Source: a virus. Taken from it: a stretch of DNA of 56,542 nucleotides. Position numbers and translations under genes: made by a program. This document shows, in pieces, positions 20,830 to 56,542 of this stretch (positions are counted from its first letter, which is position 1; every line of letters begins with the position of its first letter). The notes under the pieces are model-generated. The model made no database searches and was not told where the DNA came from. It saw only the letters and a list, made by a program, of their open reading frames with translations. The stretch is taken from the IMG/VR virus record IMGVR_UViG_3300045988_107080; one strand, 5' to 3'.

Positions 20830-21358
20830 AGGACTTCATGCGCCATTTAGTGCGAGCCAGTCTAGTTGGTTAAGGTATAGTGACGAGAAAGCAATTGAGG
20901 TGTATACAAACAAAAAAGCTGCAGAGATAGGAACAAGATTTCATCAATGGGCTAAAGACACCATAGATTTAGGAATAAAGCAGCCTCGTTCTAAAAAGAC
21001 CATTTATGCATATGTTAACGATGCAATCGGATTTAAGATGAGCACAGAGGTTGTTTTATATTATTCTGATCGATTTTTCGGAACAGCAGATTCTATATGT
21101 TTTAGAAATGGAATGCTTAGAATTCACGATTTAAAAACTGGAAAAACTCCAGTACATATGGAGCAGCTTGAAGTTTATGCTGCTCTTTTTTGTTTGGAAT
21201 ATAAAGTTAAACCTAGCGATATTGATATGGAACTAAGAATCTATCAGAATGATCAAATTCTGTATCATAATCCGACCGCAGAAGATATTGTTCCGATAAT
21301 GGATAAGATTGTCCATCTTAATAATTTGCTAGAAAAAATTGATTATGAGGAGAGTTGA
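20801..21358 (+). CDS. RecB/Cas4-like PD-(D/E)XK exonuclease
   Basis: Start trimmed to the ATG after AAGGAGGAGG. Motifs GTADSICF, IHDLKTGK and EQLEVYAALF. Confidence 0.6.
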   Translation: MNFIKHSNLEGLHAPFSASQSSWLRYSDEKAIEVYTNKKAAEIGTRFHQWAKDTIDLGIKQPRSKKTIYAYVNDAIGFKMSTEVVLYYSDRFFGTADSICFRNGMLRIHDLKTGKTPVHMEQLEVYAALFCLEYKVKPSDIDMELRIYQNDQILYHNPTAEDIVPIMDKIVHLNNLLEKIDYEES

Positions 21359-21360
21359 TC

Positions 21361-24300
21361 ATGAATCCTGTTGCAGAAGAGATTATGTCATATTTTGGTT
21401 GCAGCTTAGACGATGAAGAATCATTAGAGCATATTGGCATGCCTCGTCGTAGCGGACGATATCCTTGGGGCTCAGGCAAGGACCCTTATCAGCGTAATGC
21501 TGATTTTCTCGCTCGTATCGAGTTACTTAAAAAAGAAGGATGGGAAGAAACACCCGAGAATATCAAGAATGAGTTTGGATTGACCACAACTCAGTATCGT
21601 ACTCAAAAAGGACTGGCTAAAGATGAGCGAAGAATGCTCAAAGTATCTACTGCTAAATCTCTGAAAGAAGATGGTCTTGGTCCTACAGAGATCGCTAGAA
21701 AAATGAGCGAAAGATTTGGCGAAAATATAAACGAGTCAACGGTTCGTTCATTGCTTGATAGCAAATCTGAAAGTAGAATGCTAAAAGCAAAAGAAACCGC
21801 AGATTTTATAAAAAAGAACGTTGACGAAAAGGGAATGATTCTTCTTGGTACTGGCGTAGATGTCGAGCTTAATATTTCTAAAGAAAAACTTAATCAGGCT
21901 CTTGCTCTTCTTGAAGTAGAGGGATATCATGTCCTTGGAGGTCGAGTTCCGCAGGCAAGCAACCCTAGTCAGATGACAACTATAAAAGTTATAGCTCCTC
22001 CTGACACGCCATATAAAATCAACTCTAAAGGCCAAAAAGTTTCTAGCGCCGTTTACGACTATAATAATATTCATACACTTAAGGAATATATTTCTCGTGA
22101 CGGAGGAAACACGTTCGAAAAGAAATTCAACTATCCTGAAAGTATGGACTCAAATCGCCTTATGATTAGATATAAGGAAGACGGAGGAATCGATAAAGAT
22201 GGCATTGTTGAACTTCGTCCAGGAGTAGCAGATTTGTCGCTTGGAGAGTCACGATATTCTCAGGTTCGTATAATGGTTGATGGTAACAAATATATAAAAG
22301 GCATGGCTATTTATGGCGATCCAAAAGATTTTCCTGACGGCGTTGATGTTATTTTTAACACCAACAAATCTAAGAGTGTTCCGAAAATGGATGTTCTTAA
22401 AACTATAAAGGACGATCCCGACAATCCTTTTGGTTCGTTGATAAAAGATGCCGAGCAAGGAGGACAATATTGGTACGATCCTAAAACAGGAAAGCGCGTT
22501 AGCGCAACCGATCCTAATGTTAAAGATAAAAAACTTGGTCTTATAAATAAGAGAGCAGATGAAGGAGATTGGACAGAATGGAAAGATAAACTTCCTTCGC
22601 AGTTTTTATCTAAGCAGTCTGTAGAATTGGCTAAAAAGCAGCTAAATTTGGCTGAAGCAGATAAGGTAGCAGAGTTCGATGAGATTTGTTCATTTCCAAA
22701 TCCTACAGTTAAAAAACATTTGCTAACTAAATTTGCAGATGAATGTGACTCTGCAGCCGTTCATCTTCAGGCAGCTGCTTTGCCTGGTCAGAAATACCAT
22801 GTTATTATTCCAGTTAATACGCTTAAGGACAACGAGATTTATGCTCCTGGATACGAAGATGGAACTAAACTAGCTCTTATAAGATATCCTCATGCAGGCA
22901 CATTCGAAATACCTATACTAAAGGTAAACAATAAAAACGAATTGGCAAGAGATATTATAGGAACATCGTCCATTGACGCGGTTGGAATAAATAAGAATAA
23001 TGCTGATCGTTTGTCCGGAGCAGATTTTGATGGTGACACTGTTATGTGCATACCTACACATGATAGAAAAGGTAAAGTCAGAATCACATCAACAGATGAG
23101 CTTAAAGGATTAAAAGGGTTTGATCCCAAAGATGCTTATGGTCCAGATGAAGTGAAAAAAGATTCAAACGGAAAGCTTCATTATTATAGAAACGGTGTAG
23201 AATATCGTACAATGAGTGAAGCTCATAAGCAGCAGCAAATGGGTGTAGCTTCGAATCTTATTACTGATATGACTTTAAAAGGAGCGACACCAAGCGAAAT
23301 AGAAAGAGCTGTTCGTTATAGCATGGTTGTTATCGATGCTGAAAAACACCATCTTGATTATAAGCAATGCGAACTCGATAATAATATATCTGGCCTAAAA
23401 AAAGATTATCAAAACGGCGGTGCATCTACAATCATATCAAGAAGTAAGAGTATAGAGCCTGTTCCTAAAAGACAGGGAAGCCCTCTTATAAATTATAAAG
23501 ATAAAAAATGGTATGATCCTAGTAAACCAGAAGGTGCACTTATTTGGAAAACGGCAGATGATATATATTATCCAATTAAAAAATACGATAAAAAAAATAA
23601 TGAAATAGTTATTTCTACAGAAGATGGTAAAAAGATCAGGTATAAAGCCGATGATAAAGAAGCAGCTTCAAAATATGAGCCTATAAAAAATGTTGAGCCT
23701 GGAACTGGACGCGTATATTTCACTAACAAATACGGCGATATTGTTTATAAAACAAAGATTCGTACACAAGATAGTACAAAAATGGCAGAAACAAATGATG
23801 CCCGTACTCTTATTTCTGATGCAAATAACCCCATGGAAATGCTATATGCCGACTATGCAAATCATATGAAGTCCCTGGCTAACCAAGCTCGTAAGGAGAC
23901 CATGTCTGCCGGAAAAATTGCATATTCTAAGACGGCTAAGGAAGTATATCGTAAAGAAGTTTCAGACTTAAATATTAAACTCAATGAAGCTTTAAAAAAT
24001 GCTCCTCGTGAAAGGATGGCTAATATTAAGACAGCTGCCGAAATCGACAGAAAAATAAAAAATATAATGGACGCTAATCCTGGTATGACACGAAAAGAGG
24101 CTTCTAAGAAACTCGATATTAAGAAAGCAAATCAGAGAGCGCTAACTAAATATCGTTCAGAACTTGGAGCTGTGGCTAGAAGAGATCGTTCTATAAAAAT
24201 AACTGATCGTGAATGGGAAGCTATACAAGCAGGAGCTGTTAGCGAAACAACGTTAAAGAAAATACTTAACAATACCGATATTGATGATATTAAAGAAAGA

Positions 24301-24450
24301 GCAATGCCTCGTTCTAGAACGACTTTGAGTCCAGCTAAAGTTAATCAGATTAAAGCAATGAGAGATTCCAATTACACAATTGGAGAAATAGCAAAGAAAC
24401 TTGGTGTTTCAACATCAACAGTTTCTGCATATTTGAAAGGAGTGAACTGA
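21361..24450 (+). CDS. candidate single-subunit two-barrel RNA polymerase (YonO / crAss gp66 / RdRP-like) with HTH-like termini
   Basis: LALIRYPHAGTFEIPILKV...LSGADFDGDTVMCIP parallels beta-prime NRAPTLHRLG...NADFDGDQM; ADFDGD is encoded at 23020-23037. N-terminal HTH-like GLGPTEIARKMS..NESTVRSLL and C-terminal YTIGEIAKKLGVSTSTVSAYLKG. No other RNAP subunits are present. Confidence 0.55.
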   Translation: MNPVAEEIMSYFGCSLDDEESLEHIGMPRRSGRYPWGSGKDPYQRNADFLARIELLKKEGWEETPENIKNEFGLTTTQYRTQKGLAKDERRMLKVSTAKSLKEDGLGPTEIARKMSERFGENINESTVRSLLDSKSESRMLKAKETADFIKKNVDEKGMILLGTGVDVELNISKEKLNQALALLEVEGYHVLGGRVPQASNPSQMTTIKVIAPPDTPYKINSKGQKVSSAVYDYNNIHTLKEYISRDGGNTFEKKFNYPESMDSNRLMIRYKEDGGIDKDGIVELRPGVADLSLGESRYSQVRIMVDGNKYIKGMAIYGDPKDFPDGVDVIFNTNKSKSVPKMDVLKTIKDDPDNPFGSLIKDAEQGGQYWYDPKTGKRVSATDPNVKDKKLGLINKRADEGDWTEWKDKLPSQFLSKQSVELAKKQLNLAEADKVAEFDEICSFPNPTVKKHLLTKFADECDSAAVHLQAAALPGQKYHVIIPVNTLKDNEIYAPGYEDGTKLALIRYPHAGTFEIPILKVNNKNELARDIIGTSSIDAVGINKNNADRLSGADFDGDTVMCIPTHDRKGKVRITSTDELKGLKGFDPKDAYGPDEVKKDSNGKLHYYRNGVEYRTMSEAHKQQQMGVASNLITDMTLKGATPSEIERAVRYSMVVIDAEKHHLDYKQCELDNNISGLKKDYQNGGASTIISRSKSIEPVPKRQGSPLINYKDKKWYDPSKPEGALIWKTADDIYYPIKKYDKKNNEIVISTEDGKKIRYKADDKEAASKYEPIKNVEPGTGRVYFTNKYGDIVYKTKIRTQDSTKMAETNDARTLISDANNPMEMLYADYANHMKSLANQARKETMSAGKIAYSKTAKEVYRKEVSDLNIKLNEALKNAPRERMANIKTAAEIDRKIKNIMDANPGMTRKEASKKLDIKKANQRALTKYRSELGAVARRDRSIKITDREWEAIQAGAVSETTLKKILNNTDIDDIKERAMPRSRTTLSPAKVNQIKAMRDSNYTIGEIAKKLGVSTSTVSAYLKGVN

Positions 24451-25070: not shown

Positions 25071-25386
25071 ATGCGTGTTCTTAAATTCAATGTAACCGGC
25101 CAAATTCTTAAAGCCGACAACAAGTGCGACTTTGATAATATTGTTGCAGGAAGTAAAAATTATCTGATTGCAGATTTTACATTCGATGACGAATGGAGCA
25201 AGTATAAAAAAAGTTGCTGTCTTTATAAATGGCAAAATTGAATACCCAGTTTTAATAGAAGAAAACAAATGTATTATCGATAATAACGCTCTTACTTCTG
25301 GGTGGTTTTATGTCTATGTTGTTGGGCAGCTACAAAACGAAAGAATAAACACAAATTCGGTTGGAGTAAGGCAGGTGCTTAGATAA
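25071..25386 (+). CDS. tail-fibre-module protein interrupted by a +1 frame change at an A7 run
   Basis: Frame 0 (25071-25241) reads MRVLKFNVTGQ...DFTFDDEWSKYKK and then ends after 9 more codons. The +1 frame continues VAVFINGKIEYPVLIEENK...VRQVLR to 25386. The switch point is the A7 run at 25206-25212. The joined 104-aa product reads as one domain. Confidence 0.55.
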
Positions 25387-27047
25387 TGCCAACAGTTGAT
25401 GAATTACTTAATGCTTCAAATGAAGTAACAACCTGTACAATTAATCCTGATACTCGCGAAATAATTGTTCCGGAAAAGTATAAAATTTTAGGAGTATTCT
25501 CTGACGAGAAAGTAACAAAGATTCCTTTTACTTGTCCGAGAGTTGTCGGAAATAATGTTGATCTCACAGAGTATAATCTTTATATAAATTATCAAAACGC
25601 AAGTGGCGCGAGTAATGCTTACTTAATAGACGATCTTGTTGTATCAGGAGACAACATTACATTTTCATGGTTGCTTTCAAGATATGTTACGTTTTCGCAA
25701 GGAGTTGTTAAATATAGTTTCTGTGCAAAGAAATTAGATGGCGATACGATTTCTAACGAATGGAATACAACCATTGCAACGGGCTTAGTTATTCAAGGTC
25801 TGGAAGCAACGCGAGAAATCATAGAAGAGAATCCAGACATAATTGAATCACTTATTTCCAAAGCACATACGCATGAAAACAAGTCGGTTCTTGACAAGTT
25901 TTCTGAAACCGACGGAAAGCCGACCTATAACGGCATAGCCATTGGTAGCGGTGGTACTGGTGGGGCATCAACCGCCGAAGACGTCAATTATACCAACACG
26001 CAGTTGCCGAACGTCGACAATGTCAAAGGCGCACTCGACGAGCTTATCCCTAAATCCCACACGCACGACAACAAGTGGGTGCTTGATAAGTTTGATGAAT
26101 TTTTTGGTAAGCCAATCTATGACGGCAAGGTTTTAGGCGAAGGTGTTTTTATAATTAAGGCAACTGCTAGTATGAACGACGACGGAACATATGAAGTAAT
26201 CAATCCCACATCAACTTTAGCAGAAATTGAAGCAGCCGTTGAAGACGGAAAAGTTCCGATTGCCTTGGTAGAAATTTCGCGAACATCCACTGTTATTTTA
26301 CAGTTGAAAAGCTGTGGGGAAGGAACCTGTATCTTCAGCACTATGTTGTACGGTACTGAGGCTCAGTTACATGTTGTGCAAGAAGATCAAGAAAGATGGT
26401 ACTTTATAATGAGTAGCCAACCGATAAGTGCAGAGAACGTTACCTATTATGATAAATCGGTAGAAGGCGCACTCGACGAGCTCGTTCCCAAATCCCACAC
26501 GCACGCTAACAAAGGCACACTCGACAAGCTCTCCGACTCAAACGGAAAGCTCCAATATAACGGCTCTGATGTCGGCTTAAAGGGCGATAAGGGAGACCCT
26601 GGCTCGGATGCAAATGTGACAAAAGACAATGTTATAACTGCACTCGGCTATACGCCGGAAGCGGTATCGGCACAGGTCTCCACAGGCTCAAACGTAACCC
26701 TTGCCGATAACACCGAGTACCGCCTCACCGATGTCACGACATTGACACTGACATATCCTACAGGCAACTTCGAGTGTTGGATGCGCTTAACCTTCGCGGC
26801 AAGCGGAAATATTACCGTTACTTTACCAACTGGCACAGAATATCTTGGTCCGACTCCTAATTTCAAAAATGGTGAGACGTGGGAACTCAGTTTTAAGGAC
26901 AAGGTTCTAGTTGCTCAGAAGGTTGGCGACAGCGGGGCAATTAGTGCCCCTGTCAAAGGCGTAGACTATTGGACGGAGCAAGATAAGCAGGAGATTGTTA
27001 ATGACGTCATAGCTGCCCTGCCCGATGGCACGGAGGTGAGTTACTGA
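25386..27047 (+). CDS. tail fibre protein with three HxH-type repeats
   Basis: TAATG coupling. The N-terminus resembles baseplate/fibre anchor domains. Three repeats: KAHTHENKSVLDKFSETDGKPTYNG, KSHTHDNKWVLDKFDEFFGKPIYDG and KSHTHANKGTLDKLSDSNGKLQYNG. Confidence 0.6.
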   Translation: MPTVDELLNASNEVTTCTINPDTREIIVPEKYKILGVFSDEKVTKIPFTCPRVVGNNVDLTEYNLYINYQNASGASNAYLIDDLVVSGDNITFSWLLSRYVTFSQGVVKYSFCAKKLDGDTISNEWNTTIATGLVIQGLEATREIIEENPDIIESLISKAHTHENKSVLDKFSETDGKPTYNGIAIGSGGTGGASTAEDVNYTNTQLPNVDNVKGALDELIPKSHTHDNKWVLDKFDEFFGKPIYDGKVLGEGVFIIKATASMNDDGTYEVINPTSTLAEIEAAVEDGKVPIALVEISRTSTVILQLKSCGEGTCIFSTMLYGTEAQLHVVQEDQERWYFIMSSQPISAENVTYYDKSVEGALDELVPKSHTHANKGTLDKLSDSNGKLQYNGSDVGLKGDKGDPGSDANVTKDNVITALGYTPEAVSAQVSTGSNVTLADNTEYRLTDVTTLTLTYPTGNFECWMRLTFAASGNITVTLPTGTEYLGPTPNFKNGETWELSFKDKVLVAQKVGDSGAISAPVKGVDYWTEQDKQEIVNDVIAALPDGTEVSY

Positions 27048-29035
27048 TGGCGAAGAAGCTATATGAAGAATCGTTAATTCAGGATATTGCTAACGCCATT
27101 CGTGAGAAAAATGGCGAGACAACCACCTACAAAATTGGAGAGATGGGAGCAGCAATAAAGGCTCTCTCGGGAGAAACAGAGACTTATACATTTAGTCAAG
27201 AACGCACAGAAGTCAGTAAGTTTTTAAGAGAAGTTACTTATAACCCTGCTGATTATACAATATCATCAATACCCAACTATGTCACTACCACTTCCTCTAA
27301 TCATCCCGAAGGTGTTTCTATTCAAATAAAAAAAGCAGGTAGTTTAGTTATAACTGATGGTAATACAAATAATACCATTACAAAAGCCGTTCAAGCCGGG
27401 GCAATTAAAATTTACAATTTGACCCCGAATATAATTTCTACCTTTTTTGTAATTGACTCTAATAACAAAATAATCCAACAAGGCACCATTAAGCCGACAG
27501 GAACTTGCCGCATGATCTATATGACAAATGTTGATAACGTACGCGATATTGGCGGATGGTCTTGTGATGGTGGCACAATAAAATATGGTAAGCTTTTTCG
27601 TGGCGGAGATGTTTATGGAGTTTTAACCGAGGATGGAGCTACACAGGCTCTTGATATGCTTGGAATTGAAAAAGAGATAGATTTAAGATTTGACTCAGAT
27701 TTAAATGGTAGAACTGAAAGTGGTTTTGGCAACTCTGTGGATATGCTTCATGTTGATATGACATGGAATGACTTAAATTACCAGAAAAATAGTGGCAATA
27801 TCAAAAAGATATTTGACCAATTATTTGACTATGTAATTGCGGGACATCCTACATACTTCCATTGTTCTGCTGGAGCTGATAGAACTGGAGTTGTTGCTCT
27901 TCTTTGTGAAGCGGTACTTGGTATGTCACAGTCAGATATGGATAAAGAATATGAGCTAACTTGCTTTTATTCCGGCGTGGAAAATGATAGTCAAGCCCGC
28001 CGAAGAAATGAGGCTATATGGACGAGAGAAATAAATATTATTAACTCTTATTCAGGAGCCACTTTTAGAGACAAAGCAGTTAATTATATGGTGTCATGCG
28101 GCATTACAATCGAGAAAATTAATGCTTTTAGAGCAGCAATGATTAACGGCACACCAGATATCCTAACAGCAGATATTAATACCTATACGGTAACAAAGAC
28201 ATTAACCAATATAACAACGGACAATAATGCAACGTCTGCGAAACAATATCAGCCATATATAGCGAAAATACTACCTGACGATGGGAAGATAATCGAAAAT
28301 GTTAAAGTAACAATGGGCGGAACAGATATTACCAGCGCGGTATTTGATGGTAATGTGACCGTACTAAGACGAGTAATAACAAAAAATCTTACACAATGTA
28401 CAAGTAGTAATACACGCACATATGCAATTAGTGGGCAGTCTTATGTAACAAATTTAACCGCCAATGAGGGGTATGACATTGATAGTGTAAGTATAACAAT
28501 GGGAGGTGTGGATGTGTCCACATTTTATAAAGACGGGATTGTTTCTATCCCAGAAGTAACAGGAGATATTGTAATAACAGCAACTGCAATTACACAAGGT
28601 CCCGCCTATACGAATCAGATTCCAATTAGTACGGATTCCACTGGCGCGATTTATAATAATATTGGATATAAAGATGGGTATCAAATAAGTGACAGTGGTG
28701 TTGATGAGGAACTGGGTCATAAATCTGTTACAGGGTTTATACCGATTAAGAAGGGCGATACAATTCGCATAAAAGGAGTCTACAACAATGATGTAACTTC
28801 ATGCCGAATGTGCGCTTATAATAGTTCTAAAGCTTTTGAAACGGCACGAAATGGAACAATATTTGCCTCAACTGGAGTCTATTCTTTATCAGGAGATGTA
28901 ATGACATATACTCCTAACGAGTATTTCGTGACTGATACCACTCGTTATTTTCGCTTTTCTTGTGACACCGGTGCGCACACAGGGGAAGAAGATGGCTCAA
29001 AGTTAATTATTACTATAAACGAAGAAATCGTCTAA
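27047..29035 (+). CDS. fibre-cluster protein with embedded protein-tyrosine-phosphatase-like (CX5R) domain and C-terminal Ig-like/binding domains
   Basis: NVRDIGGW...KLFRGGD...GIEKEIDLRFDSD...YFHCSAGADRTG (HCSAGADRTG is encoded at 27860-27889) matches the Y_phosphatase3-type P-loop. Two repeats of the form VxxTMGGxDxxS follow. Confidence 0.65.
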   Translation: MAKKLYEESLIQDIANAIREKNGETTTYKIGEMGAAIKALSGETETYTFSQERTEVSKFLREVTYNPADYTISSIPNYVTTTSSNHPEGVSIQIKKAGSLVITDGNTNNTITKAVQAGAIKIYNLTPNIISTFFVIDSNNKIIQQGTIKPTGTCRMIYMTNVDNVRDIGGWSCDGGTIKYGKLFRGGDVYGVLTEDGATQALDMLGIEKEIDLRFDSDLNGRTESGFGNSVDMLHVDMTWNDLNYQKNSGNIKKIFDQLFDYVIAGHPTYFHCSAGADRTGVVALLCEAVLGMSQSDMDKEYELTCFYSGVENDSQARRRNEAIWTREINIINSYSGATFRDKAVNYMVSCGITIEKINAFRAAMINGTPDILTADINTYTVTKTLTNITTDNNATSAKQYQPYIAKILPDDGKIIENVKVTMGGTDITSAVFDGNVTVLRRVITKNLTQCTSSNTRTYAISGQSYVTNLTANEGYDIDSVSITMGGVDVSTFYKDGIVSIPEVTGDIVITATAITQGPAYTNQIPISTDSTGAIYNNIGYKDGYQISDSGVDEELGHKSVTGFIPIKKGDTIRIKGVYNNDVTSCRMCAYNSSKAFETARNGTIFASTGVYSLSGDVMTYTPNEYFVTDTTRYFRFSCDTGAHTGEEDGSKLIITINEEIV

Positions 29036-29093: not shown

Positions 29094-29696
29094 ATGACCA
29101 GACGTCGGTTAATGATGCTTAAAAAATCAGGTGGTGGACTGCCCGAAGGCTATACCGCAGTCAATTATCTTGAAAGCACTGGTAGACAATATATTGATAC
29201 GGAAATAAGCGCTGCAATAGATTTGGGTGTGAAAATCAATTTTATGCCCAAATCTTCAGGACAGGCTTTCGGCGCGATAACATCTTTGAGAAAAGGATAC
29301 TATGGTGTAGAGTTTTCGCCAAGTAGAGGCATTACTGCTTACTGGGGAGCTGGTGGTATAGATATTAGAAAGAATTGGGAGGCAGGAGCTACTTACGAAA
29401 TTGATTTTAACTATCAAAATTCTGGCATAGCAATATTTAATGATGCTACTTTAGCGCTGCCATCGAACGGTGAAATAACACAAAATACCGTACATCTATT
29501 TAAGTTAAACGAGGGTACCACCCCTTACACCCAGTACATCAGCGGGCAAGCTTACGGAATGAAAATGACAAAGGGGCATGAAATTGTTCTTGATTTCCTA
29601 CCCGCTCTTAATCCTGACGGAGTACCTTGTATGTATGATGTTATTCGAAAAAAAGCATTTTATAATGCTGGAACGGGTGATTTCTTATGGGGGTGA
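29094..29696 (+). CDS. hypothetical fibre-associated protein
   Basis: RBS CAGGAGG. LPEGYTAVNYLESTGRQYIDTE is an N-terminal pattern I recall from many uncharacterised gut-phage proteins. Confidence 0.4.
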   Translation: MTRRRLMMLKKSGGGLPEGYTAVNYLESTGRQYIDTEISAAIDLGVKINFMPKSSGQAFGAITSLRKGYYGVEFSPSRGITAYWGAGGIDIRKNWEAGATYEIDFNYQNSGIAIFNDATLALPSNGEITQNTVHLFKLNEGTTPYTQYISGQAYGMKMTKGHEIVLDFLPALNPDGVPCMYDVIRKKAFYNAGTGDFLWG

Positions 29697-29700
29697 TTAA

Positions 29701-29982
29701 ATGTACGGAAAACTTATAGACGGCGAGCTTCGCGGTGCGCCGAGACCGATAAGAACGGCGGACGGAGACGTGTTTACAAACGCCCCGTCAATATATCTCG
29801 CTAATGGCTATAAGCCAATAATTTTAACCGATTGTCCATCCGATGGAAAGAATTACATAAGCTCGTGGACAGAAACAGAGACCGAAATCACGCAGGTGTG
29901 GACGGAAGTCCAGCAGACGGACGATGACCCGATATCAGACTCCGAGGCGCTTGAAATAATCACAGGGGGTACCGATGCATGA
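29701..29982 (+). CDS. hypothetical protein (GC-rich island)
   Basis: Clean ORF with GGGGG upstream. GC content is far above the genome background. Confidence 0.45.
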   Translation: MYGKLIDGELRGAPRPIRTADGDVFTNAPSIYLANGYKPIILTDCPSDGKNYISSWTETETEITQVWTEVQQTDDDPISDSEALEIITGGTDA

Positions 29983-30413
29983 CGCGAGCAGAAGCAAAAG
30001 CTTATCGTGACAAGATAGATGGCGTGTTGACTAAGGTCACTACAGACGCAGAAGCTTTACAATACGCAGAGCTTTATCCGCTTTGGAGCGGGTATATTGA
30101 TTATGCTGTCGGCAGTATAGTCCGCAGACCGAACGGGCTGTATAAGTGTTACAACGCAATAACGGCAAATCCGACATGGTTGCCGGAAAACACAGCTGCG
30201 CACTGGGAGCCTATCACGGTCGGCGAAGACGGCACGATAGATAACCCGATAATCGCTGCCGCTGGTATGAGGTATTTCAAGGGCAAGTACTATCTTGACG
30301 GCGGCAAAATTTACAGATGCACGCGCGATGACAGTAACGGTCAAGGAACTATAATGCAATATGTACCGTCGCAGCTTGTTGGAATTTACTTTGAAGAGGC
30401 GACCCAAAGTTAA
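29979..30413 (+). CDS. CBM5/12-like carbohydrate-binding protein (tentative)
   Basis: YAVGSIVRRPNGLYKCYNAITANPTWLPENTAAHWEPI resembles the chitin-binding W...Y..G..V...G..Y.C....W.P....W pattern. Confidence 0.4.
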   Translation: MTRAEAKAYRDKIDGVLTKVTTDAEALQYAELYPLWSGYIDYAVGSIVRRPNGLYKCYNAITANPTWLPENTAAHWEPITVGEDGTIDNPIIAAAGMRYFKGKYYLDGGKIYRCTRDDSNGQGTIMQYVPSQLVGIYFEEATQS

Positions 30414-35444: not shown

Positions 35445-36821
35445 ATGGAGCAAACACTTGGATCTAGGCTGAGACATGCCTGGAATGCTTTTCGGAGTCG
35501 AGCTCCCACGGAAGAATTTAGAGATGTTGGGCAAGGATATTACTATCGTCCAGATAGAGTAAGGCTCACTAGAGGAAACGAGCGTTCTATTGTCACGTCC
35601 ATTTATAATAGAATTGCAATTGACGTTGCATCTGTGGATATTAAACATTGCCGTCTGGATGATAATGGCCGATTCATATCAGAAATAGATTCTGGTCTTA
35701 ATTCTTGCTTGACACTTGAAGCAAATCTCGACCAGACAGCGAGAGCGTTTAAACAGGATATTGTCATGTCTATGTTCGACGAAGGTTGTGTGGCAATAGT
35801 TCCGGTTGACACGACCCTCGATCCAAATAAAACCAGCTCATATGATATTTTGACAATGAGAACTGGTAAGATTCTTGAATGGTATCCGCAGCATGTAAAA
35901 GTAAGAGTTTACAATGAGAAGACTGGAAAGAAAGAAGATATAAAAGTTCCAAAAAGTACAGTCGGCATAATTGAGAATCCTCTCTACGCAATAATTAATG
36001 AGCCGAACTCAACCATGCAGCGTCTCATAAGAAAACTTAGTTTGCTGGATATTACAGATGAACAAACTGCTTCAGGTAAACTGGACTTAATAATTCAGTT
36101 GCCTTATGTAATAAAAACAGAAGCAAGACGTCAGCAAGCTGAAAATAGGCGAAAAGACATCGAAATGCAGTTAGCAAGTTCTAAGTATGGTATAGCTTAT
36201 ACCGATGGTACTGAGCGTATCACACAGTTGAATCGTTCTGTCGAGAACAATCTGTTGAAGCAGATCGAATCTCTAACGAGTACGCTATACAGCCAGTTAG
36301 GAATCACTCAGGCTATCTTAGATGGAACGGCAGACGAAAAGACAATGCTCAACTACAATAATCGAACGATTGAGCCAATTGTGTCAGCTATAGTTGACGA
36401 AATGAAACGAAAGTTTCTAACCAAAACTGCTCGGTCACAAAAGCAGTCAATCTTGTCATTTAGAGACCCGTTTAAACTTGTTCCAGTAAACAACATCGCT
36501 GATATTGCAGATAAGTTTACTAGAAATGAGGTTCTCACTTCGAACGAGATTAGGCAAATTATTGGATTTAAACCTTCTGATGATCCAAAGGCTGATGAGC
36601 TTATCAATAGCAATATATCTCAGCCGAATCAGGGAATGGAGATGCCATACGAAGATCCTTATGCTGAGGAACCTTATGCTGAGGAACCTTATGCTGAGGA
36701 ACCATATGCTGAGGAACCATATGGCGATGAAGTTCCTTATGAAGAAGAGTCAGAAGATTCAATTCCATTAGGTCAAAGACCGTACAGTGAAATTGCTAAA
36801 AAATTCAATGAAGGAGGATAA
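35445..36821 (+). CDS. portal protein
   Basis: 458 aa, lying between the terminase and the protease-capsid gene. Acidic repetitive C-terminus. Confidence 0.65.
   Translation: MEQTLGSRLRHAWNAFRSRAPTEEFRDVGQGYYYRPDRVRLTRGNERSIVTSIYNRIAIDVASVDIKHCRLDDNGRFISEIDSGLNSCLTLEANLDQTARAFKQDIVMSMFDEGCVAIVPVDTTLDPNKTSSYDILTMRTGKILEWYPQHVKVRVYNEKTGKKEDIKVPKSTVGIIENPLYAIINEPNSTMQRLIRKLSLLDITDEQTASGKLDLIIQLPYVIKTEARRQQAENRRKDIEMQLASSKYGIAYTDGTERITQLNRSVENNLLKQIESLTSTLYSQLGITQAILDGTADEKTMLNYNNRTIEPIVSAIVDEMKRKFLTKTARSQKQSILSFRDPFKLVPVNNIADIADKFTRNEVLTSNEIRQIIGFKPSDDPKADELINSNISQPNQGMEMPYEDPYAEEPYAEEPYAEEPYAEEPYGDEVPYEEESEDSIPLGQRPYSEIAKKFNEGG
36657..36731 (+). repeat. 15-bp tandem repeat x5 (CCTTATGCTGAGGAA) inside the portal gene
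   Basis: Three identical units, one with a single change, and one degenerate. Encodes PYAEE x4 followed by PYGDE. Confidence 0.9.
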
Positions 36822-36828
36822 AATCAAA

Positions 36829-38574
36829 ATGGAAAGATTTGATTTTAGCGGATGGGCTACCAAAGCTAATCTCAAATGCTCTGATGGCAGAACCATCATG
36901 AAAGATGCATTTAAGCATAATGATGGACAGACTGTTCCTCTTGTATGGAACCATCAGCACAACGATCCGAATGAAGTTCTAGGTCATGCTCTTCTTGAGA
37001 ACCGAGACGAAGGCGTTTATGCCTATTGCACCTTCAACGATACTGAATCCGGAAAGACTGCAAAGCTGCTTGTTCAGCATGGAGATGTTAATGCACTCTC
37101 TATCTATGCAAACCAGCTTAAACAGAAGATGTCCAATGTGCTGCATGGAAACATTCGTGAAGTTAGTCTGGTTCTTGCTGGAGCTAATCCTGGAGCTTCT
37201 ATCGATTCTATCATTATGCATGGTGAAGAGTCGGACGAAGAAGCAATTATTTATACCGGAGAAGAGATTACTCTTGCTCATTCAAGCGACGCTAAAGATA
37301 GCAAAGGAACTACAAAGGAGGATAATAAAATGGCAGACGATATTAAGAAGACAGACGGTGAAGAGACCGTTGCTGATGTATTTAATACTCTCAGCGAAAA
37401 GCAGAAGACTGTGGTCTATGCGATGATTGGTCAGGCACTCGAAGATGCCGGTGTGACCGATGACGATGATGAAGATTATGAAGACGAAATGGGACATTCG
37501 GAAGGAGACGATTACATGAAAAGAAACGTATTTGACAACGATGAGCAGCAGGAAGATGTTCTTTCTCATGCTGCAATGGAAACAATTATTGGTGATGCTA
37601 AGCGCTTCGGCAGCCTGAAGGAGAGCTTCCTTGCACATGCCGATGAGTACGGTATCGAGCAGATCGACTATCTGTTCCCCGAGGCGAAGACACTCAACAA
37701 TCCGCCTGAGTTCATTAAGAGAGACACTGGCTGGGTTAGCACAGTTATGGGTGCTGTCCATCACACTCCGTTCTCTCGTATTAAGTCGGTATTTGCAAAT
37801 ATAACCGAGGATGAGGCTCGTGCAAAGGGTTATATTAAGGGTAACCTTAAGAAGGAGGAGGTCTTCTCGCTGCTTAAGAGAACTACTACTCCTACTACGA
37901 TTTACAAAAAGCAGAAGCTTGATCGTGACGACGTCATTGACATCACCGATTTCGATGTTGTTGCTTGGCTGAAGTCTGAGATGCGTATTATGCTTGACGA
38001 GGAAATTGCTCGTGCGATCCTTATCGGTGACGGTCGCCTTTCTTCTAGCGATGACAAGATCAACGAGTCCAACATTCGTCCTGTCGTTTCCGATGCTGAG
38101 CTTTATACCATCCGTCAGAAGGTTAGCGTTGCTACTAATGCTACTGATGACGATAAGGCCAAGGCTATGATTAAGGCTGCTGTTAAGGCTCGTAAGAACT
38201 ATAAGGGTTCTGGTAATCCTACTTTCTTCACTACTGAAGATTGGCTGACTAATGCACTTCTTCTTGAGGACGCTCAGGGCCATCGTCTGTACAAGAATGA
38301 TAGTGAAGTTGCTGCTGCTATGCGTGTCAGCAAGATCGTTACTGTTCCGGTTATGGAAGGCGTTAAGGGCCCCGAGGGTGGCGATCTGATCGGTATCATC
38401 GTTAACCTTGCAGACTATAATGTTGGTGCTGATAAGGGCGGTGCCGTCAACATGTTTGACGACTTCGACATCGATTACAACCAGCAGAAGTACCTGATTG
38501 AGACTCGTTGCTCTGGCGCGCTCATTAAGCCTTACTCCGCTATTGAGCTTGAGCTTGATGTCGCTGCTGGTTAA
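36829..38574 (+). CDS. prohead serine protease (HK97/S78-like) fused to the major capsid protein
   Basis: N-terminus FSGWATKAN...VPLVWNHQHNDPNEVLGHA...ALSIYA...IREVSLVLAGANPGASI matches the S78 protease pattern. An acidic linker follows, then a ~330-aa HK97-fold-like capsid region. Confidence 0.7.
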   Translation: MERFDFSGWATKANLKCSDGRTIMKDAFKHNDGQTVPLVWNHQHNDPNEVLGHALLENRDEGVYAYCTFNDTESGKTAKLLVQHGDVNALSIYANQLKQKMSNVLHGNIREVSLVLAGANPGASIDSIIMHGEESDEEAIIYTGEEITLAHSSDAKDSKGTTKEDNKMADDIKKTDGEETVADVFNTLSEKQKTVVYAMIGQALEDAGVTDDDDEDYEDEMGHSEGDDYMKRNVFDNDEQQEDVLSHAAMETIIGDAKRFGSLKESFLAHADEYGIEQIDYLFPEAKTLNNPPEFIKRDTGWVSTVMGAVHHTPFSRIKSVFANITEDEARAKGYIKGNLKKEEVFSLLKRTTTPTTIYKKQKLDRDDVIDITDFDVVAWLKSEMRIMLDEEIARAILIGDGRLSSSDDKINESNIRPVVSDAELYTIRQKVSVATNATDDDKAKAMIKAAVKARKNYKGSGNPTFFTTEDWLTNALLLEDAQGHRLYKNDSEVAAAMRVSKIVTVPVMEGVKGPEGGDLIGIIVNLADYNVGADKGGAVNMFDDFDIDYNQQKYLIETRCSGALIKPYSAIELELDVAAG

Positions 38575-40309: not shown

Positions 40310-40708
40310 ATGCTTAAAAAGACTATTACTTACACTGATTATAACGGAGTTGAGAGAACCGAAGACTTCTGGTTTAATCTGTCAAAGGCTGAAATTATGG
40401 AGATGGAAATGAGCACTTCTGGCGGTCTCGCTGAGATGATTCAGAAGATTGTTGCAGCCCAGGATGCACCGGCGATAATTAAGGTTTTCAAAGATCTTGT
40501 GCTTAAGGCATATGGCGAGAAGAGTCCCGATGGCAAGAGATTCATCAAATCAGAAGAGATCGCCACTTCGTTCTCACAGACAGAGGCGTACTCTAATCTA
40601 TTTATGGAACTTGCTACAGATGCTGATGCAGCAGCTAAGTTTGTGAACGGTATTATTCCCCAGGCTGATAGGACTGCTAATAATACTGTTGCACCTGCTG
40701 CGAAGTAA
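40310..40708 (+). CDS. tail assembly chaperone (putative)
   Basis: Position between the tube gene and the tape measure gene; small and acidic. Confidence 0.4.
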   Translation: MLKKTITYTDYNGVERTEDFWFNLSKAEIMEMEMSTSGGLAEMIQKIVAAQDAPAIIKVFKDLVLKAYGEKSPDGKRFIKSEEIATSFSQTEAYSNLFMELATDADAAAKFVNGIIPQADRTANNTVAPAAK

Positions 40709-41293: not shown

Positions 41294-41413
41294 ATGAACG
41301 AAGAAATCAAGAATGCTGAAACTCAGGAAGAGTTTGCGGAAGAGATTTTTGAAGAAGAGCTGTCACCTGAAGCTCTTGAAGAACTTTCAAATAATAAAGG
41401 AGATGAGGACTAA
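41294..41413 (+). CDS. 39-aa highly acidic peptide
   Basis: Hand translation: MNEEIKNAETQEEFAEEIFEEELSPEALEELSNNKGDED. TAATG junction with the amidase gene. Confidence 0.3.
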   Translation: MNEEIKNAETQEEFAEEIFEEELSPEALEELSNNKGDED

Positions 41414-42402
41414 TGGGATTTTCTAATAGCCCATTGGTTAATTATACCAAAATCTCACCTAATAAGAATATAAATCGAAATCACAAAATTGATACGATTA
41501 CAATTCATTGTGTCGTTGGTCAGTGTTCTGTCGAGACTATAGGAAATGTGTTTGCACCTAAAAGTAGACAGGCATCATCTAATTATGGAATAGGGCCGGA
41601 TGGAAGAATAGGCATGTATGTTGAAGAGAAGGATCGTTCTTGGTGCTCTTCTTCAGCTTCTAACGATCATCGTGCTGTAACTATTGAGGTTGCTTCAGAT
41701 AGGAAAGAGCCTTATGCGGTTACGGCTAAGGCTTATGCGTCGCTTATAAATCTTGTTGCTGATATATGTAAGAGAAACGGTATTAAGGAGCTTAAGTGGA
41801 AGGCTGACAAATCTCTCATTGGCCAGGTCGATAAGCAGAACATGACCGTTCATAGGTGGTTCTCTAATAAATCATGCCCCGGAACTTATCTTTATAATCA
41901 CATGGGGGATATAGCGGCAAAAGTAAATAAGAAACTCGGTGCAACAGGTCATAATACCGAACCCATAAAGGAAACCGCTTCCACTTCGAAGATAAAAGTA
42001 GGCAGCACAGTAAAAATCTCTAATGGAGCAACATATTACAACGGCAAGAAAGTCCCTGCCTGGGTAATTAAAAAGAACTGGATTGTCGACGAGGTTAAAG
42101 GCGACAGAGCCGTAATCGATAAGTCTGTTGATGGTGAAAACTCCATTTCAAGTGCAATTAATACAAAATTCCTTAGCGTAGTTAATGCTACAGTTAAACC
42201 AGCGGAAACAAATTTCAAACCATATACTGTTAAGATAACTGCTTCAGCACTTAATATTCGTAAGGGTCCTGGCATGAATTATAATATCGTCGGATGTATA
42301 AGCGATCGTGGTGTATATACGATTGTCGACGAATCTTCTGGTTGGGGGAAGCTCAAATCCGGTGCTGGTTGGATTGCGCTGAATTATACAAAACGAGTTT
42401 AA
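41413..42402 (+). CDS. N-acetylmuramoyl-L-alanine amidase (Amidase_2/PGRP-type) with two C-terminal binding domains
   Basis: IDTITIHCVVG...SSNYGIGPDGRIGMYVEE..RSW...NDHRAVTIEV. C-terminal SH3b-like YTVKITASALNIRKGPGMNYNIVG...GWGKL. Confidence 0.8.
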   Translation: MGFSNSPLVNYTKISPNKNINRNHKIDTITIHCVVGQCSVETIGNVFAPKSRQASSNYGIGPDGRIGMYVEEKDRSWCSSSASNDHRAVTIEVASDRKEPYAVTAKAYASLINLVADICKRNGIKELKWKADKSLIGQVDKQNMTVHRWFSNKSCPGTYLYNHMGDIAAKVNKKLGATGHNTEPIKETASTSKIKVGSTVKISNGATYYNGKKVPAWVIKKNWIVDEVKGDRAVIDKSVDGENSISSAINTKFLSVVNATVKPAETNFKPYTVKITASALNIRKGPGMNYNIVGCISDRGVYTIVDESSGWGKLKSGAGWIALNYTKRV

Positions 42403-42414
42403 GAGGTGTAGGCA

Positions 42415-42792
42415 ATGATAAGTTTCAGACAAAAGGGCGACTTTTCTAACTTGACTCGTTATTTGGAGAGAGCAAAAAATGTCACTAAAATTGGCGATCT
42501 TGACAAGTATGGTCGAGAGGGTGTAGCCGCCCTTGCGTCTGCGACACCTGTCGATTCTGGTTTAACCGCTAGTTCATGGTATTACAAGATCGAACATCAA
42601 AATGGATCTGTAACTATATCTTTTTATAACTCAAATGTTAATAAAGGAGTCCCGATCGCTATAATTTTACAATATGGTCACGGAACTCGGAATGGAGGCT
42701 GGGTAGAAGGGATAGATTATATCAATCCTGCAATCCAGCCTATTTTTGATAGAATTGCCGACGCTGCGTGGAAGGAGGTAACTAAAGCATGA
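42415..42792 (+). CDS. HK97 gp10-family tail/neck component
   Basis: ATPVDSGLTASSW...ILQYGHGT...INPAIQPIFDRI matches the gp10-family pattern. Confidence 0.5.
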   Translation: MISFRQKGDFSNLTRYLERAKNVTKIGDLDKYGREGVAALASATPVDSGLTASSWYYKIEHQNGSVTISFYNSNVNKGVPIAIILQYGHGTRNGGWVEGIDYINPAIQPIFDRIADAAWKEVTKA

Positions 42793-45700
42793 GCAAAACC
42801 ATTGATCAAAAAGTTGTTGAAATGCGATTTGATAATGCTCAGTTTGAAAAGAATGTTTCGACCAGCATGTCGACTCTTGATAAACTAAAGAGAAGTTTGA
42901 AACTCGATGGTGCAGCTAAAGGTTTGGAAAGTGTCAACGCTGCTGCTAAAAACTTTGACGTATCAAACGTTAGCAATGGCGTCGAAACGATAAAAGCAAA
43001 ATTCTCAGCATTGCAAGTTGTAGCCGCAACCGCTCTTGGTAATATTACTAATTCCGCAGTTAATGCTGGCAAAAGGATAGCTTCTGCTTTAACAATAGAA
43101 CCAATAAAAGCGGGTTTCAATGAGTATGAAACTCAGATGAATGCCGTTCAGACTATTTTGGCTAATACCCAAAAAGAGGGTACAAATGTTAAGATTGTCA
43201 ATAAAGCACTCGATGAACTTAATACTTATGCAGATAAGACGATATACAACTTCACCGAGATGACCCGTAATATTGGTACCTTTACTGCTGCAGGTGTTAA
43301 GCTTAACACGTCAGTTAGTTCAATTAAGGGTATCGCAAACTTAGCAGCTGTGTCAGGTTCATCATCCATGCAGGCATCTACAGCTATGTATCAGTTATCT
43401 CAGGCAATAGCATCTGGCACAGTTAGACTTATGGACTGGAACTCAGTTGTTAATGCTGGTATGGGTGGACAGGTATTTCAGGATGCACTTATACGAACCT
43501 CAGAGCATTTGAAGACTGGAGCAAAATCAGCTATTAAAGCAAATGGCTCCTTTAGAGAATCGTTGCAAACTGGATGGCTTACGACGGAAGTTCTTACTCA
43601 AACGCTTGATCAATTTGCGACGGCAGCGGATACGCAAGAAGAATATGAAGCTGCTATCAAAAAGTTTATTGATCAGGGCTATACTGCAGAACAAGCAAAA
43701 CAAATGGCTGATATGGCAAGAACTGCTGGCAATGCAGCTACAAAAGTTAAGACTTTTACACAGTTAATCAGCACTTTAAAAGAGGCTCTCGGTTCTGGAT
43801 GGGCTGCAACATGGAGATTGATAATAGGCGACTTTGAAGAGGCTAAGGAACTTTGGACGTCTGTTTCCGATGTACTTAGCGAAATGATTAATAACTCGTC
43901 AGAAGCTCGTAACAAAATCGTCGGAGATTGGGCTAAAGGCGGAGGCCGAACAATGCTCATAGAATCTCTCAAGAATTCTTTTGAGGGTTTGGTGAGTATT
44001 ATAAAGCCAATTAAAGAGGCCTTTAGTGAGATATTTCCTCCGATCACAGCTAAACAGTTAATCGAAATCACAGAGCGTATTCGAGATCTTACTTCGAAGT
44101 TTAAATTAAATAACAAGCAATCTGCTAAACTAAAATCAACATTTAAAGGTCTTTTCTCGGTTATAAAACTCGGCGTTAGCGTCGTGACAAAGATTGTTTC
44201 TGCAGTTGCTACGCTAGTCGGAAAGTTATTTGGCTTCACCGGTAGTGTTTTAAATATCACAGGATCTCTTGGAGATTTTATTAGTGGAATAGCAACATCA
44301 ATAACCAAAGCCAATTTATTTGGTAAGTCTGTAGATAAAATCACGGGTTTTCTCGGAAAAGCTATCGACAAAACAAAAGAGTTTACAGAAGCAATTACAA
44401 ATAAAATAAAACTTCCTAACTACTTTGATAAATTTGTTAATGTTATTAAGAAAATTGGAGAAGTAATAAGTAAAGTTGCTAAGAAAGTATCATCTGTTGC
44501 CTCTGGAATCGGTAAAGCTATTTGGGATATTTTTTTAAATGGCGGACTCGATAATTTAGTAGGTCTCGTTAATGGAGGCATATTCACTTCTGTTCTTTTA
44601 GATCTTAAAAAATTTGTAAAAGGTCTAAAAGATGTTAAGAAAGAATTAAAAGATAGCGGTAAAATAAAAGACGGCATAAAAAAAGTATTAGATGGCGTAA
44701 AAGATTGTCTTGAAGATTTTCAGAAAAATATAAAAGCTGGAACGATTCTTAAAATAGCAATTGCTGTAGCGGTCTTAGCAGCCGCTCTTCTCATTATATC
44801 TAAAGTTCCGGTAGAAAAATTAGGAGCGTCTCTCGGTGCTGTAACAGCTCTTTTTGGAGAAACTCTTGGTGCTCTCGCGTTATTTGAGAAGATCAATGGC
44901 GAGTATAACGGTGCATTTAGAGCTGTCAGTATTATAGTAGCGATGTCGCTGTCACTCCTGATTCTTGCTTCTGCTGTAAAGAAATTGTCTGATTTGGGCT
45001 GGGAAGGACTGGCCGAAGGAGTTATAGGCGTATCAGCTTTGATGTATGCACTTGTCGGTGCAGCTAAGCTTATGTCAAAAGGCGGAAAAGATATTTCTAA
45101 AGGTGCTTATCAGCTAGTCATAATGGCTGTAGCCCTTAAGTTAATGGCATCAGTATGTAAAGATTTGTCTAAACTCAGTTTGGAAGATTTAGGCAAAGGC
45201 GTCTCTAGTGTAGCTGTTATATTACTCGAATTTGCCGGTTTTGCCGCGTTAATGGAGCGTATAGATACCGATGAATTAATGAGGTCATCATTCTCTCTTA
45301 TTCTCATTGGTGTTGCCATGGAGATATTTGCTGACGCATGTGCCAAATTTGGAAATATGGAATGGGTCGATTTAGGAAAAGCAGGCGCTGCTATAGCAGG
45401 CATTTTACTAATCGCTTCTGGATTCGGGAAACTATCTGAATATTCTGGCGACATAGAAAAGAGCTCTATAGCGCTGATTCTTATCGGGGCAGCTATGGAG
45501 ATATTTGCTGATGTATGTACCAAATTCGGACAGTTAGAATGGGAGCAGTTGGCAAAAGCAGGGGCTGCAATTGCTGGCATATTAATGCTCGTAAACGACT
45601 TTAATTCTATATCTGAAGAATCTGGCGATGATATTATAAAATCCGCAATAAGTCTTGCTATAATTGGAGTAGCTCTCGAAATACTTCAGAATGCTCTTGG

Positions 45701-56457: not shown

Positions 56458-56542
56458 ATTTTTTTTTCAAATTCTCCATAAAATTCGCGAAAATTACATT
56501 CCATATTATGAAGAGAAAGTTAGGATGAAACCGGAACGGTCG
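56458..56542. repeat. terminal redundancy copy 2 (identical to 1-85)
   Basis: Same 85 nt as positions 1-85. Consistent with circular assembly overlap or a short direct terminal repeat. Confidence 0.95.
56484..56515 (+). promoter_or_regulatory. conserved bipartite promoter-like motif (duplicate of copy A inside the terminal redundancy)
   Basis: Identical to 27-58. Confidence 0.5.

Follow-up and report, generated by a model that had tools for sequence, protein, structure and literature searches.

The window analysed here, the whole 56,542-nt stretch of the IMG/VR virus record IMGVR_UViG_3300045988_107080, contains an open reading frame (ORF) for a 662-residue modular protein of the tail-fibre or receptor-binding type (27047..29035, plus strand), in which a phosphatase with the fold of protein tyrosine phosphatases (PTP) is embedded. 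This protein probably forms the distal part of a tail fibre or baseplate appendage, the subunit in contact with the host, and would carry a catalytically active Cys phosphatase; its location on the virion, its docking, its enzymatic activity and the nature of its substrate are what we infer. The following parts, all on the plus strand, can be distinguished along the polypeptide. An N-terminal adaptor (residues 1-44; 27047..27178; MAKKLYEE..IAxAIRxKNG..YK..M), predicted to be helical and common to proteins with differing payloads, is followed by a beta-sandwich domain (residues 45-155; 27179..27511), delimited from AlphaFold2 (AF2) strands (E46-107 of the model), and by the Y_phosphatase3 or PtpB-type Cys phosphatase domain (residues 156-372; 27512..28162), identified with Pfam, AF2 and Foldseek. 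Two tandem Ig-like repeats (residues 373-440 and 441-516; 28163..28594), recognised as an internal repeat, then lead to a beta-rich C-terminal head (residues 517-662; 28595..29032), which is hypervariable among the homologs and presumed to be the receptor-binding tip.

Fold and catalytic residues of the phosphatase domain

Residues 159-324 match PF13350 (Y_phosphatase3) with E=1.2e-23 and a score of 84.8 bits, where the gathering score is 22.2, and a profile made from the homologs finds PDB entry 8dhi (E=5.8e-8, residues 165-308) as well as PtpB of Mycobacterium tuberculosis. The only other Pfam family found at E<=0.1 was a marginal PF00102, while the PTP-like phytases (PF14566, PhyA of the Selenomonas type) were not matched; the protein and its neighbours were also unmatched in NCBIfam. 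An earlier sequence-only reading of this DNA had proposed a phosphatase domain from several short motifs, all of which were found in the translation: NVRDIGGW (residues 164-171), KLFRGGD (182-188), EIDLRFDSD (210-218) and the P-loop HCSAGADRTG (272-281), encoded exactly by 27860..27889.

The AF2 model of residues 45-375, built on 64 sequences of down to ~30% identity, is confident (pLDDT 93.9, pTM 0.92) and places the beta-sandwich packed against an alpha/beta PTP domain. Compared with the PDB by Foldseek, it is closest to a Clostridioides difficile PTP (8dhj, chain 8dhj_B; E=3.8e-10, TMt 0.67) and to PtpB (1ywf, E=8.7e-9), followed by laforin (4rkk, E=1e-5 across both domains) and then by Siw14, PTPMT1, VH1 and the DUSPs, at an identity to the solved structures of just 17-20%. 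Among the viral predicted structures of BFVD, the whole two-domain unit is matched only by three 'tyrosine phosphatase family proteins' of ~600 residues from uncultured gut phages (TMq 0.80-0.91). A literature search found no paper describing PDB 8DHI. Both the assignment to the Y_phosphatase3-type Cys phosphatases and the PTP fold, for which structure prediction had been named as the check, are borne out by these results.

Conservation was assessed in 64 diverse homologs, down to ~30% identity, and in 145 representatives of 50%-identity clusters, which contain 148 P-loops. Cys273, Asp278 and Arg279 of the P-loop, the predicted nucleophile, acid/base and phosphate-loop arginine, are invariant in all 64 homologs, as are Asn164, Arg166 and Asp167 of the N-terminal NxRDxGG motif. 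In the wider set the Cys and the Arg are invariant (145/145) and at least 90% of the sequences retain the Asp, which speaks against the possibility, raised in the earlier reading, that the motif belongs to a degenerate, non-catalytic domain. Three candidates for the acid of a WPD-like loop (D232, D237 and D242) were rejected, as none is conserved across the wide alignment. In PtpB-type enzymes, which have the signature HCXXGKDR[TA]G, the acid/base Asp lies within the loop (Asp165 of PtpB) next to a Lys that tunes specificity (Lys164 of PtpB) (PMC6409689, PMC13275282). Given this precedent and the lack of conservation of the WPD-like candidates, D278 was assigned as the acid/base. Another cysteine, Cys173 (27563-27565), lies in the motif GGWxCDGG and is invariant in 64/64 homologs and present in at least 90% of the 145 representatives. 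Its role could be structural, or it could pair with Cys273 as a redox 'backdoor'.

The position of the specificity Lys is taken by A277 in the window protein, by Ala in 133 of the 148 P-loops, by Arg in five and by Lys in none, which places the protein within the Pfam family PF13350 but outside the strict signature of the PtpB-type atypical lipid phosphatases (ALPs). Judged by its sequences, the clade has a diagnostic P-loop of its own, HCxxGADRTG, suggesting a substrate preference unlike that of the phosphoinositide-directed ALPs. Characterised PtpB-type enzymes take non-protein substrates, namely phosphoinositides and InsP6 (PMC13275282, PMC6409689). In other respects the likeness to the ALPs and to further Y_phosphatase3 proteins (1ywf, 8dhi/8dhj and the soil enzyme Pho16B) is close: the fold, the N[VF]RDxGG motif and a P-loop HCxxGxDR[TA]G with its Cys, Arg and Asp are shared, and members of that group are often extracellular or secreted. 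They are, however, stand-alone proteins of ~250-300 residues, whereas the domain described here is embedded in a 662-residue fibre-type protein behind an obligatory beta-sandwich.

This beta-sandwich always precedes the PTP domain in the clade, and its YN..P..G motifs are present in at least 90% of the 145 representatives. It has no match in Pfam, including CBM20 and CBM48, and is possibly carbohydrate-binding. The sequence-only reading had seen an N-terminal fibre-like region in front of the phosphatase; instead, this part consists of the helical adaptor of ~40 residues and of the beta-sandwich (residues ~45-155) packed on the PTP domain. A PTP-fold enzyme behind a beta-sandwich is also known from the glucan phosphatases laforin and SEX4, in which a carbohydrate-binding module is combined with a dual-specificity phosphatase (DSP), and laforin acts on polysaccharide phosphomonoesters. 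Laforin 4rkk is the best Foldseek match outside Y_phosphatase3, with an alignment over 345 columns, although the TM-score is just 0.30 and the root-mean-square deviation 14.8 A. It differs in its domain arrangement and belongs to another PTP subfamily, and the beta-sandwich of the window protein lacks the CBM20/48 match; the likeness is an analogy and not a sign of membership.

Probable fibre scaffold, exchange of payloads and neighbouring genes

The protein is no rarity of one phage and belongs to a very large family, with at least 3,360 close matches and 344 clusters at E<=1e-30. Homologs of equal length and 57-93% identity are abundant, and several of them have thousands of member sequences. 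They are annotated just as 'tyrosine phosphatase family protein' or 'hypothetical', in some cases with the addition '[Caudoviricetes sp.]', and to that extent the domain had already been recognised. All genome-resolved relatives belong to Clostridia/Oscillospiraceae, including a prophage (locus L001) of the cultured lysogen Brotocaccenecus cirricatena CLA-AA-H272.

Conservation among the close homologs is distributed unevenly along the protein, being highest in the PTP core (mean identity 84%, minimum 75%, range 75-99%) and lowest in the C-terminal 146 residues (mean 38%, minimum 21%). At least three exchange types of the C-terminal head occur, which makes the tip a mosaic; the type found in the window is also present in the L001 protein and in a protein with a different enzyme (L004, see below). 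The two repeats between the phosphatase and the head, which had been described as Ig-like in the earlier reading, were recovered as an internal repeat (residues 382-439 against 444-501, 36% identity, E=1e-11) and are beta-rich, with pLDDT 73-92 in a full-length model; the counterpart repeat in L004 has weak matches to Big_12 and Flg_new_2. The protein contains neither a signal peptide nor a transmembrane segment, consistent with its assembly into virions in the cytoplasm.

The gene immediately upstream (25386..27047, plus strand) is an ORF for a 553-residue fibre-like protein with three 'ALDELxPKSHTHxNKxxLDKF...GKxxYxG' repeats, HxH motifs at residues 161, 225 and 371, and a short collagen-like GLKGDKGDPGSD. 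It matches phrog_7946/10485, whose function is not known, and has no match in Pfam, including BppU_N, and no sequence match in the PDB. Alignment to the partners encoded at the same place in other phages reveals a 'joint' formed by the C-terminal 40 residues of this protein (26925..27044, plus strand; ...PVKGVDYWTEQDKQEIVNDVIAALPDGTEVSY), which are 70% identical to the end of a collagen protein in L024 (E=8e-15), 63% to that of a BppU_N protein in L031 and 70% to that in L001. The aligned partners match the 553-residue protein only in this C-terminal module of ~40 residues ending in (P)DGTEVSY. In place of the HxH-repeat fibre, collagen proteins of 279-687 residues or a BppU_N protein of 370 residues are found elsewhere, and the joint is common to BppU-, collagen- and short upstream partners that are otherwise unrelated.

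Every upstream partner that was read ends in the tail (S/T/D)EV(S/A)Y, and its stop codon overlaps or abuts the downstream ATG. In the window this is a TGATG stop/start overlap (27045..27049, plus strand; ...GAG GTG AGT TAC TGA TG...) with a GGAGG Shine-Dalgarno sequence 11 nt upstream of the ATG, inside the last codons of the 553-residue gene, so that the translational coupling to the preceding fibre gene suggested earlier is well founded. The TGATG junction is also present in L001, a nearly identical one in L025, and the junction DGTEVSY*MAKKLYEE (the asterisk being the stop) is conserved behind unrelated upstream proteins. On the other side of the joint, the N-terminal adaptor (the first ~40 residues) is found at the start of 33 of the 145 PTP-clade representatives and also carries other payloads: DUF285/LRR in L007 and a metallophosphoesterase (MPE) in L004, L017 and L021. 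The distal subunit would dock to the shaft through this joint, which probably doubles as a recombination site for the swapping of payloads.

The MPE proteins form a sister family (P0238-P0357) with more than 2,189 matches. In L004 (476-2452) a protein of 658 residues matches the window protein in two regions only, the N-terminal adaptor (68% identity, residues 1-40) and an Ig repeat plus head (35%, E=5e-24), and its middle is a calcineurin-like metallophosphoesterase (PF00149) that replaces the PTP domain. All five catalytic motifs are kept across 39 diverse members of this family: DxH in at least 90% of them, and GD, GNHD, the histidine of GHYP and GHxH without exception. Three SLH domains, which anchor proteins to the cell wall, are found in addition in some members. 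The 412-residue MPE copies of L017 and L021 (10001-11239), located beside host genes, have PGERD in place of GNHD and may be degenerate remnants. Since two unrelated, catalytically intact phosphoesterase folds occupy the same slot of the same scaffold, the replacement indicates that phosphoester hydrolysis at the cell surface would be the selected function, and it is the strongest argument for this.

The same observations bear on the idea that the PTP domain is a non-catalytic, phosphate-recognising adhesin, a lectin-like 'substrate trap' without turnover. The protein does occupy a receptor-binding position, the change of the specificity Lys to Ala in most P-loops could alter catalysis, and ligand-binding pseudophosphatases of the STYX type exist in the PTP superfamily. 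Typically these have lost the nucleophilic Cys, which here is invariant together with the Arg in all 145 representatives; the Asp, needless for mere binding, is likewise retained, in 64/64 and in at least 90% of the two sets. Moreover, the slot alternatively holds an MPE with five intact catalytic motifs, pointing to hydrolysis, and a binding module already exists in the separate hypervariable head. We therefore regard an adhesin of this kind as unlikely and retain an active phosphatase as the preferred interpretation.

The neighbourhoods of the homologs in other phages support, by their gene content, a tail-fibre or receptor-binding role. In L031, a different 56.5-kb siphophage, the order is tape measure protein (TMP), Dit, Tal, Gp10_C, BppU_N protein, PTP protein and Amidase_2 endolysin, that is, the PTP homolog sits in the slot of BppL, the receptor-binding protein (RBP). 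In L024 the capsid genes and Gp15 are followed, with other genes between, by a collagen-repeat protein, the PTP protein, an endolysin with Amidase_2 and SLH domains and a holin, and L025-27 have the same order with small proteins instead of the collagen-repeat protein. In L023 the homolog lies between a 650-residue GDSL esterase and a holin, a CHAP endolysin and an integrase, and in L028 a giant of 3,744 residues and a protein of 262 residues precede it, with a 157-residue protein and a PG_binding_1 protein behind. Thus in five other backgrounds (L023, L024, L025/26, L028 and L031) the homolog is the last tail gene ahead of the lysis genes. A full-length copy, 89% identical, was also found in an unrelated phage-like contig of ~109 kb with genes for NrdD, dCMP deaminase, ClpP, PhoH and Amidase_3+CW_7 (L036, 10001-11989), indicating a recent transfer of the cassette between very different phages. 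More distant members of the PTP clade are fused to PF22337 (Phage_fiber_rpt, 'Phage tail fiber repeats'; P0398 and P0366) or, in giants of 1,750 residues, to GDSL esterases (P0422 and P0437), and some contain the PTP domain in tandem arrays.

Such fusions are relevant to another explanation, that the enzyme is an effector carried by the virion and ejected into the cell, where it would dephosphorylate Tyr/Ser/Thr phosphoproteins of the host, for example BY-kinases that control capsule synthesis or signalling in defence. Protein dephosphorylation is the activity that gave the family its name, and PtpB sets a precedent as a secreted effector working in another cell (PMC13275282); the window protein itself has no signal peptide. 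On the other hand, its architecture of adaptor, Ig-like repeats and hypervariable tip is that of an external fibre subunit, and fusions to Phage_fiber_rpt, to GDSL esterases and to type IV pilin N-termini indicate extracellular display. Besides, ejected proteins are usually encoded with the internal head or TMP genes and not behind BppU. An ejected effector is thus improbable, slightly more so than the adhesin, and the externally displayed enzyme remains preferred.

Position of the cassette in the genome and points against a virion role

The window bears an exact direct repeat of 85 bp at its ends (positions 1-85 and 56458-56542), which means that the genome is complete and circularly assembled, with a size of ~56,457 bp (~56.46 kb). 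All genes are on one strand. The replication genes, including one for a primase-polymerase of 1,357 residues, come first, followed by a gene for a YonO-like RNA polymerase (21355-24450), the 553-residue fibre-like gene (25386-27047), the PTP gene and its three small downstream neighbours. Next are HNH, TerL, portal, a protease-capsid fusion, major tail protein, chaperone and endolysin, and then TMP (42789-48413) and the baseplate genes as far as 55804.

In this order lies the first of several points that weigh against a virion-borne phosphatase: the PTP cassette is located between the RNA polymerase gene and the HNH/terminase genes, ~13.8 kb upstream of TMP. The earlier placing of the protein in a tail-fibre cluster is supported by the homologs in tail modules of other phages, the fibre-repeat fusions and the mosaic tip, with the refinement that in this genome the cassette is outside the TMP-distal tail module and directly precedes the late structural operon. 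A second point is that no cultured phage with the gene was found among 50,697 GenBank phage records, where only unannotated faecal contigs match, and at the protein level this collection gave only four weak matches. Just one of these was nominally 'cultured', from Enterococcus phage Efs 1-1-1; being a PTP of 250 residues that stands alone, on a contig labelled UNVERIFIED_ORG, it was rejected as irrelevant. Third, the common phosphate-bearing wall polymers, the teichoic acids, are phosphodiesters, and CX5R enzymes are not known to split such bonds, which leaves a monoester substrate hypothetical. Fourth, AF2 modelling of the whole protein from 25 close homologs gave a pLDDT of 59, with the PTP core below 50, which is too poor for fibre or oligomer geometry; Foldseek found nothing significant with this model, the best E-value being 0.04 for generic Ig-like matches.

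Finally, the same PTP clade occurs in bacterial chromosomal proteins, both pilin-like ones and others in Bacteroidota-like chromosomes. P0456 and P0448 (L034/L035) are giants of 916 and 1,352 residues with type IV pilin N-methylation motifs, and P0436 (L032/L033) is a Metallophos + 2xPTP protein of 1,184 residues in a Bacteroidota-like housekeeping context. The last of these was considered as a phage diesterase/monoesterase relay and rejected, its gene being among the housekeeping genes of a Bacteroidota-like chromosome. The cellular proteins show that the domain is not phage-specific, and suggest a general enzyme of extracellular filaments or surfaces that has been recruited by phages.

The position of the cassette, the cellular homologs and the heterogeneous GC content around it (0.437 in the fibre gene and 0.48-0.50 in the small genes downstream, against 0.39 in the genome) would also fit a non-structural, moron-like accessory, which modifies the surface from within or scavenges phosphate after lysis and resembles a fibre only through shared domains. 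We consider this very unlikely. A full-length protein of 57-93% identity occupies the canonical RBP slot of several other phages, and the exact fibre joint and coupling are retained in the window. In addition, the genes are all co-oriented, with the cassette directly ahead of the late structural operon, and no export signal is present, which disfavours a secreted enzyme. A fibre-borne phosphatase encoded apart from the other tail genes is hence the interpretation that we keep.

The three small genes downstream (29094..30413, plus strand) are ORFs for proteins of 200, 93 and 144 residues, and their membership of the fibre module is uncertain. The 200-residue protein has no PDB or phage matches, and the 144-residue protein contains a CBM_5_12 domain (E=6.5e-6) and matches phrog_27545. 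None of the three was present beside the PTP gene in the other phage backgrounds examined. The 93- and 144-residue genes (29701-30413, plus strand) overlap, have the high GC content mentioned above and may have been inserted from a foreign source or serve as an accessory of the fibre. A scan for promoters and terminators gave 29 promoter-like sites against 18.6 expected, none of them compelling ahead of the cassette.

Several other features of the genome were observed. The RNA polymerase gene directly upstream of the fibre cassette (21355-24450, plus strand) encodes a YonO-like single-subunit enzyme of 1,031 residues (phrog_4291, E=0) with the motif DFDGD and a C-terminal helix-turn-helix. A paralogous pair of genes of unknown function (1542-2330 and 4012-5013, plus strand) matches phrog_2152 (E about 1e-88 to 1e-90). 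The endolysin gene (Amidase_2 + SH3_3; 41413-42402, plus strand) follows the gene for the tail assembly chaperone (40310-40708) and precedes that for TMP (42789-48413), where a lysis gene is unusual, and its surroundings revealed no holin; the endolysin gave no hint on the phosphate chemistry of the wall. Within the protease-capsid fusion gene (36787-38574), a patch of 127-143 nt at ~38390-38532 has 84-87% nucleotide identity to the capsid-protease fusion genes of 31 phages of Arthrobacter (Actinobacteria). This patch was the sole megablast match of a 24-kb query to the GenBank phage collection, where no related phage was found at the nucleotide level.

Proposed mode of action, known systems and implications

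The following mode of action may be proposed. The protein would be synthesised in the cytoplasm, its translation coupled to that of the upstream fibre protein, and would dock to the latter via the joint, that is, the ~40 C-terminal residues of the upstream protein ending in DGTEVSY and the helical N-terminal adaptor of ~40 residues downstream. The hypervariable head would then bind a structure that differs between strains on the surface of the host, one of the gut Clostridia (Oscillospiraceae-like), and the unit of beta-sandwich and PTP domain would hydrolyse a phosphomonoester on an envelope polymer through a thiophosphate intermediate at Cys273, with Arg279 and Asp278 participating. In this way the enzyme might modify or destroy the receptor, much as acetyl-esterases and depolymerases do on the fibres of other phages, and the effect could be the unmasking of a receptor, the passage through a charged polymer layer or the destruction of receptors.

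CX5R enzymes act on phosphomonoesters or terminal anhydrides. For this reason a direct cleavage of teichoic acid diesters by the PTP domain is unlikely, though possible for the MPE sister family, and of the action on phosphate-bearing wall polymers that had been suggested earlier only the removal of monoesters is plausible, diester cleavage being chemically unlikely. The GDSL esterases that are adjacent or fused to members of the clade also fit a 'substituent-removing' enzyme better than a depolymerase. An exposed catalytic Cys is plausible in the anoxic gut, and the tolerance of such a residue there may explain why the genome-resolved relatives are all found in Clostridia.

Among known systems, the baseplate of TP901-1-type lactococcal siphophages, with the upper baseplate protein BppU and the receptor-binding BppL, is comparable, given that the gene order of L031 puts the PTP homolog in the BppL slot. 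In the window protein, as in BppL, the N-terminal segment for docking is conserved and the C-terminal head exchangeable. BppL, however, is a small, non-enzymatic, lectin-like trimer, whereas the window protein has 662 residues and contains an enzyme; furthermore, its upstream partner has no BppU_N match, and its cassette lies apart from the baseplate genes. As to enzymatic fibres, SGNH/GDSL acetyl-esterase fibres modify the receptor without depolymerising it, and gp12 of phi29 and the GDPD-domain tail proteins of staphylococcal phages degrade teichoic acid. The SGNH/GDSL esterase fibres likewise have a catalytic domain within a receptor-binding protein and act on a small substituent of a surface glycopolymer, as the window protein might by analogy. 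Their chemistry is that of a Ser-hydrolase esterase, others being glycosidases, lyases or phosphodiesterases, while the window protein is predicted to be a Cys-thiophosphate phosphomonoesterase.

To our knowledge, the well-known enzymatic receptor-binding proteins are all glycosidases, lyases, esterases or peptidases. In a literature search, neither a PTP-fold nor a calcineurin-like phosphoesterase was found to have been described in a phage fibre or receptor-binding protein; the apparent matches to a phage-fibre phosphatase were a reference title and a polymerase subunit and were rejected. What appears to be new, as far as sequence comparison can tell, is the catalytic class of this enzymatic RBP, together with its distinct P-loop subfamily. 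More broadly, though with a little less than even confidence, phosphoesterases, namely the PTP clade with HCxxGADRTG and interchangeably the calcineurin-like MPEs, may be an unrecognised class of virion-associated receptor-modifying enzymes, with which thousands of phages of gut Clostridia would strip phosphate from an envelope polymer to unmask, traverse or destroy a receptor. On such virions an exposed catalytic Cys may be viable solely thanks to the anoxic habitat of these phages.

Enzymatic RBPs are central to the host range of phages and are mined as tools, for example as depolymerases. If the interpretation given here is true, a new RBP chemistry, the removal of phosphate, would be performed by two unrelated folds in one slot, as a phosphate counterpart of the neuraminidase/esterase of influenza viruses or of the O-acetyl-esterase fibres of phages, and the PTP domain would be one of the rare PTP-fold enzymes that act extracellularly on a virus particle. 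The cultured lysogen B. cirricatena CLA-AA-H272 makes this reading testable. For the hosts, it would point to a phosphorylated surface receptor or glycopolymer in the abundant but poorly studied gut Oscillospiraceae/Clostridia, and the combination of a hypervariable head with an enzyme would offer a ready-made probe for the cell-wall chemistry of these bacteria.

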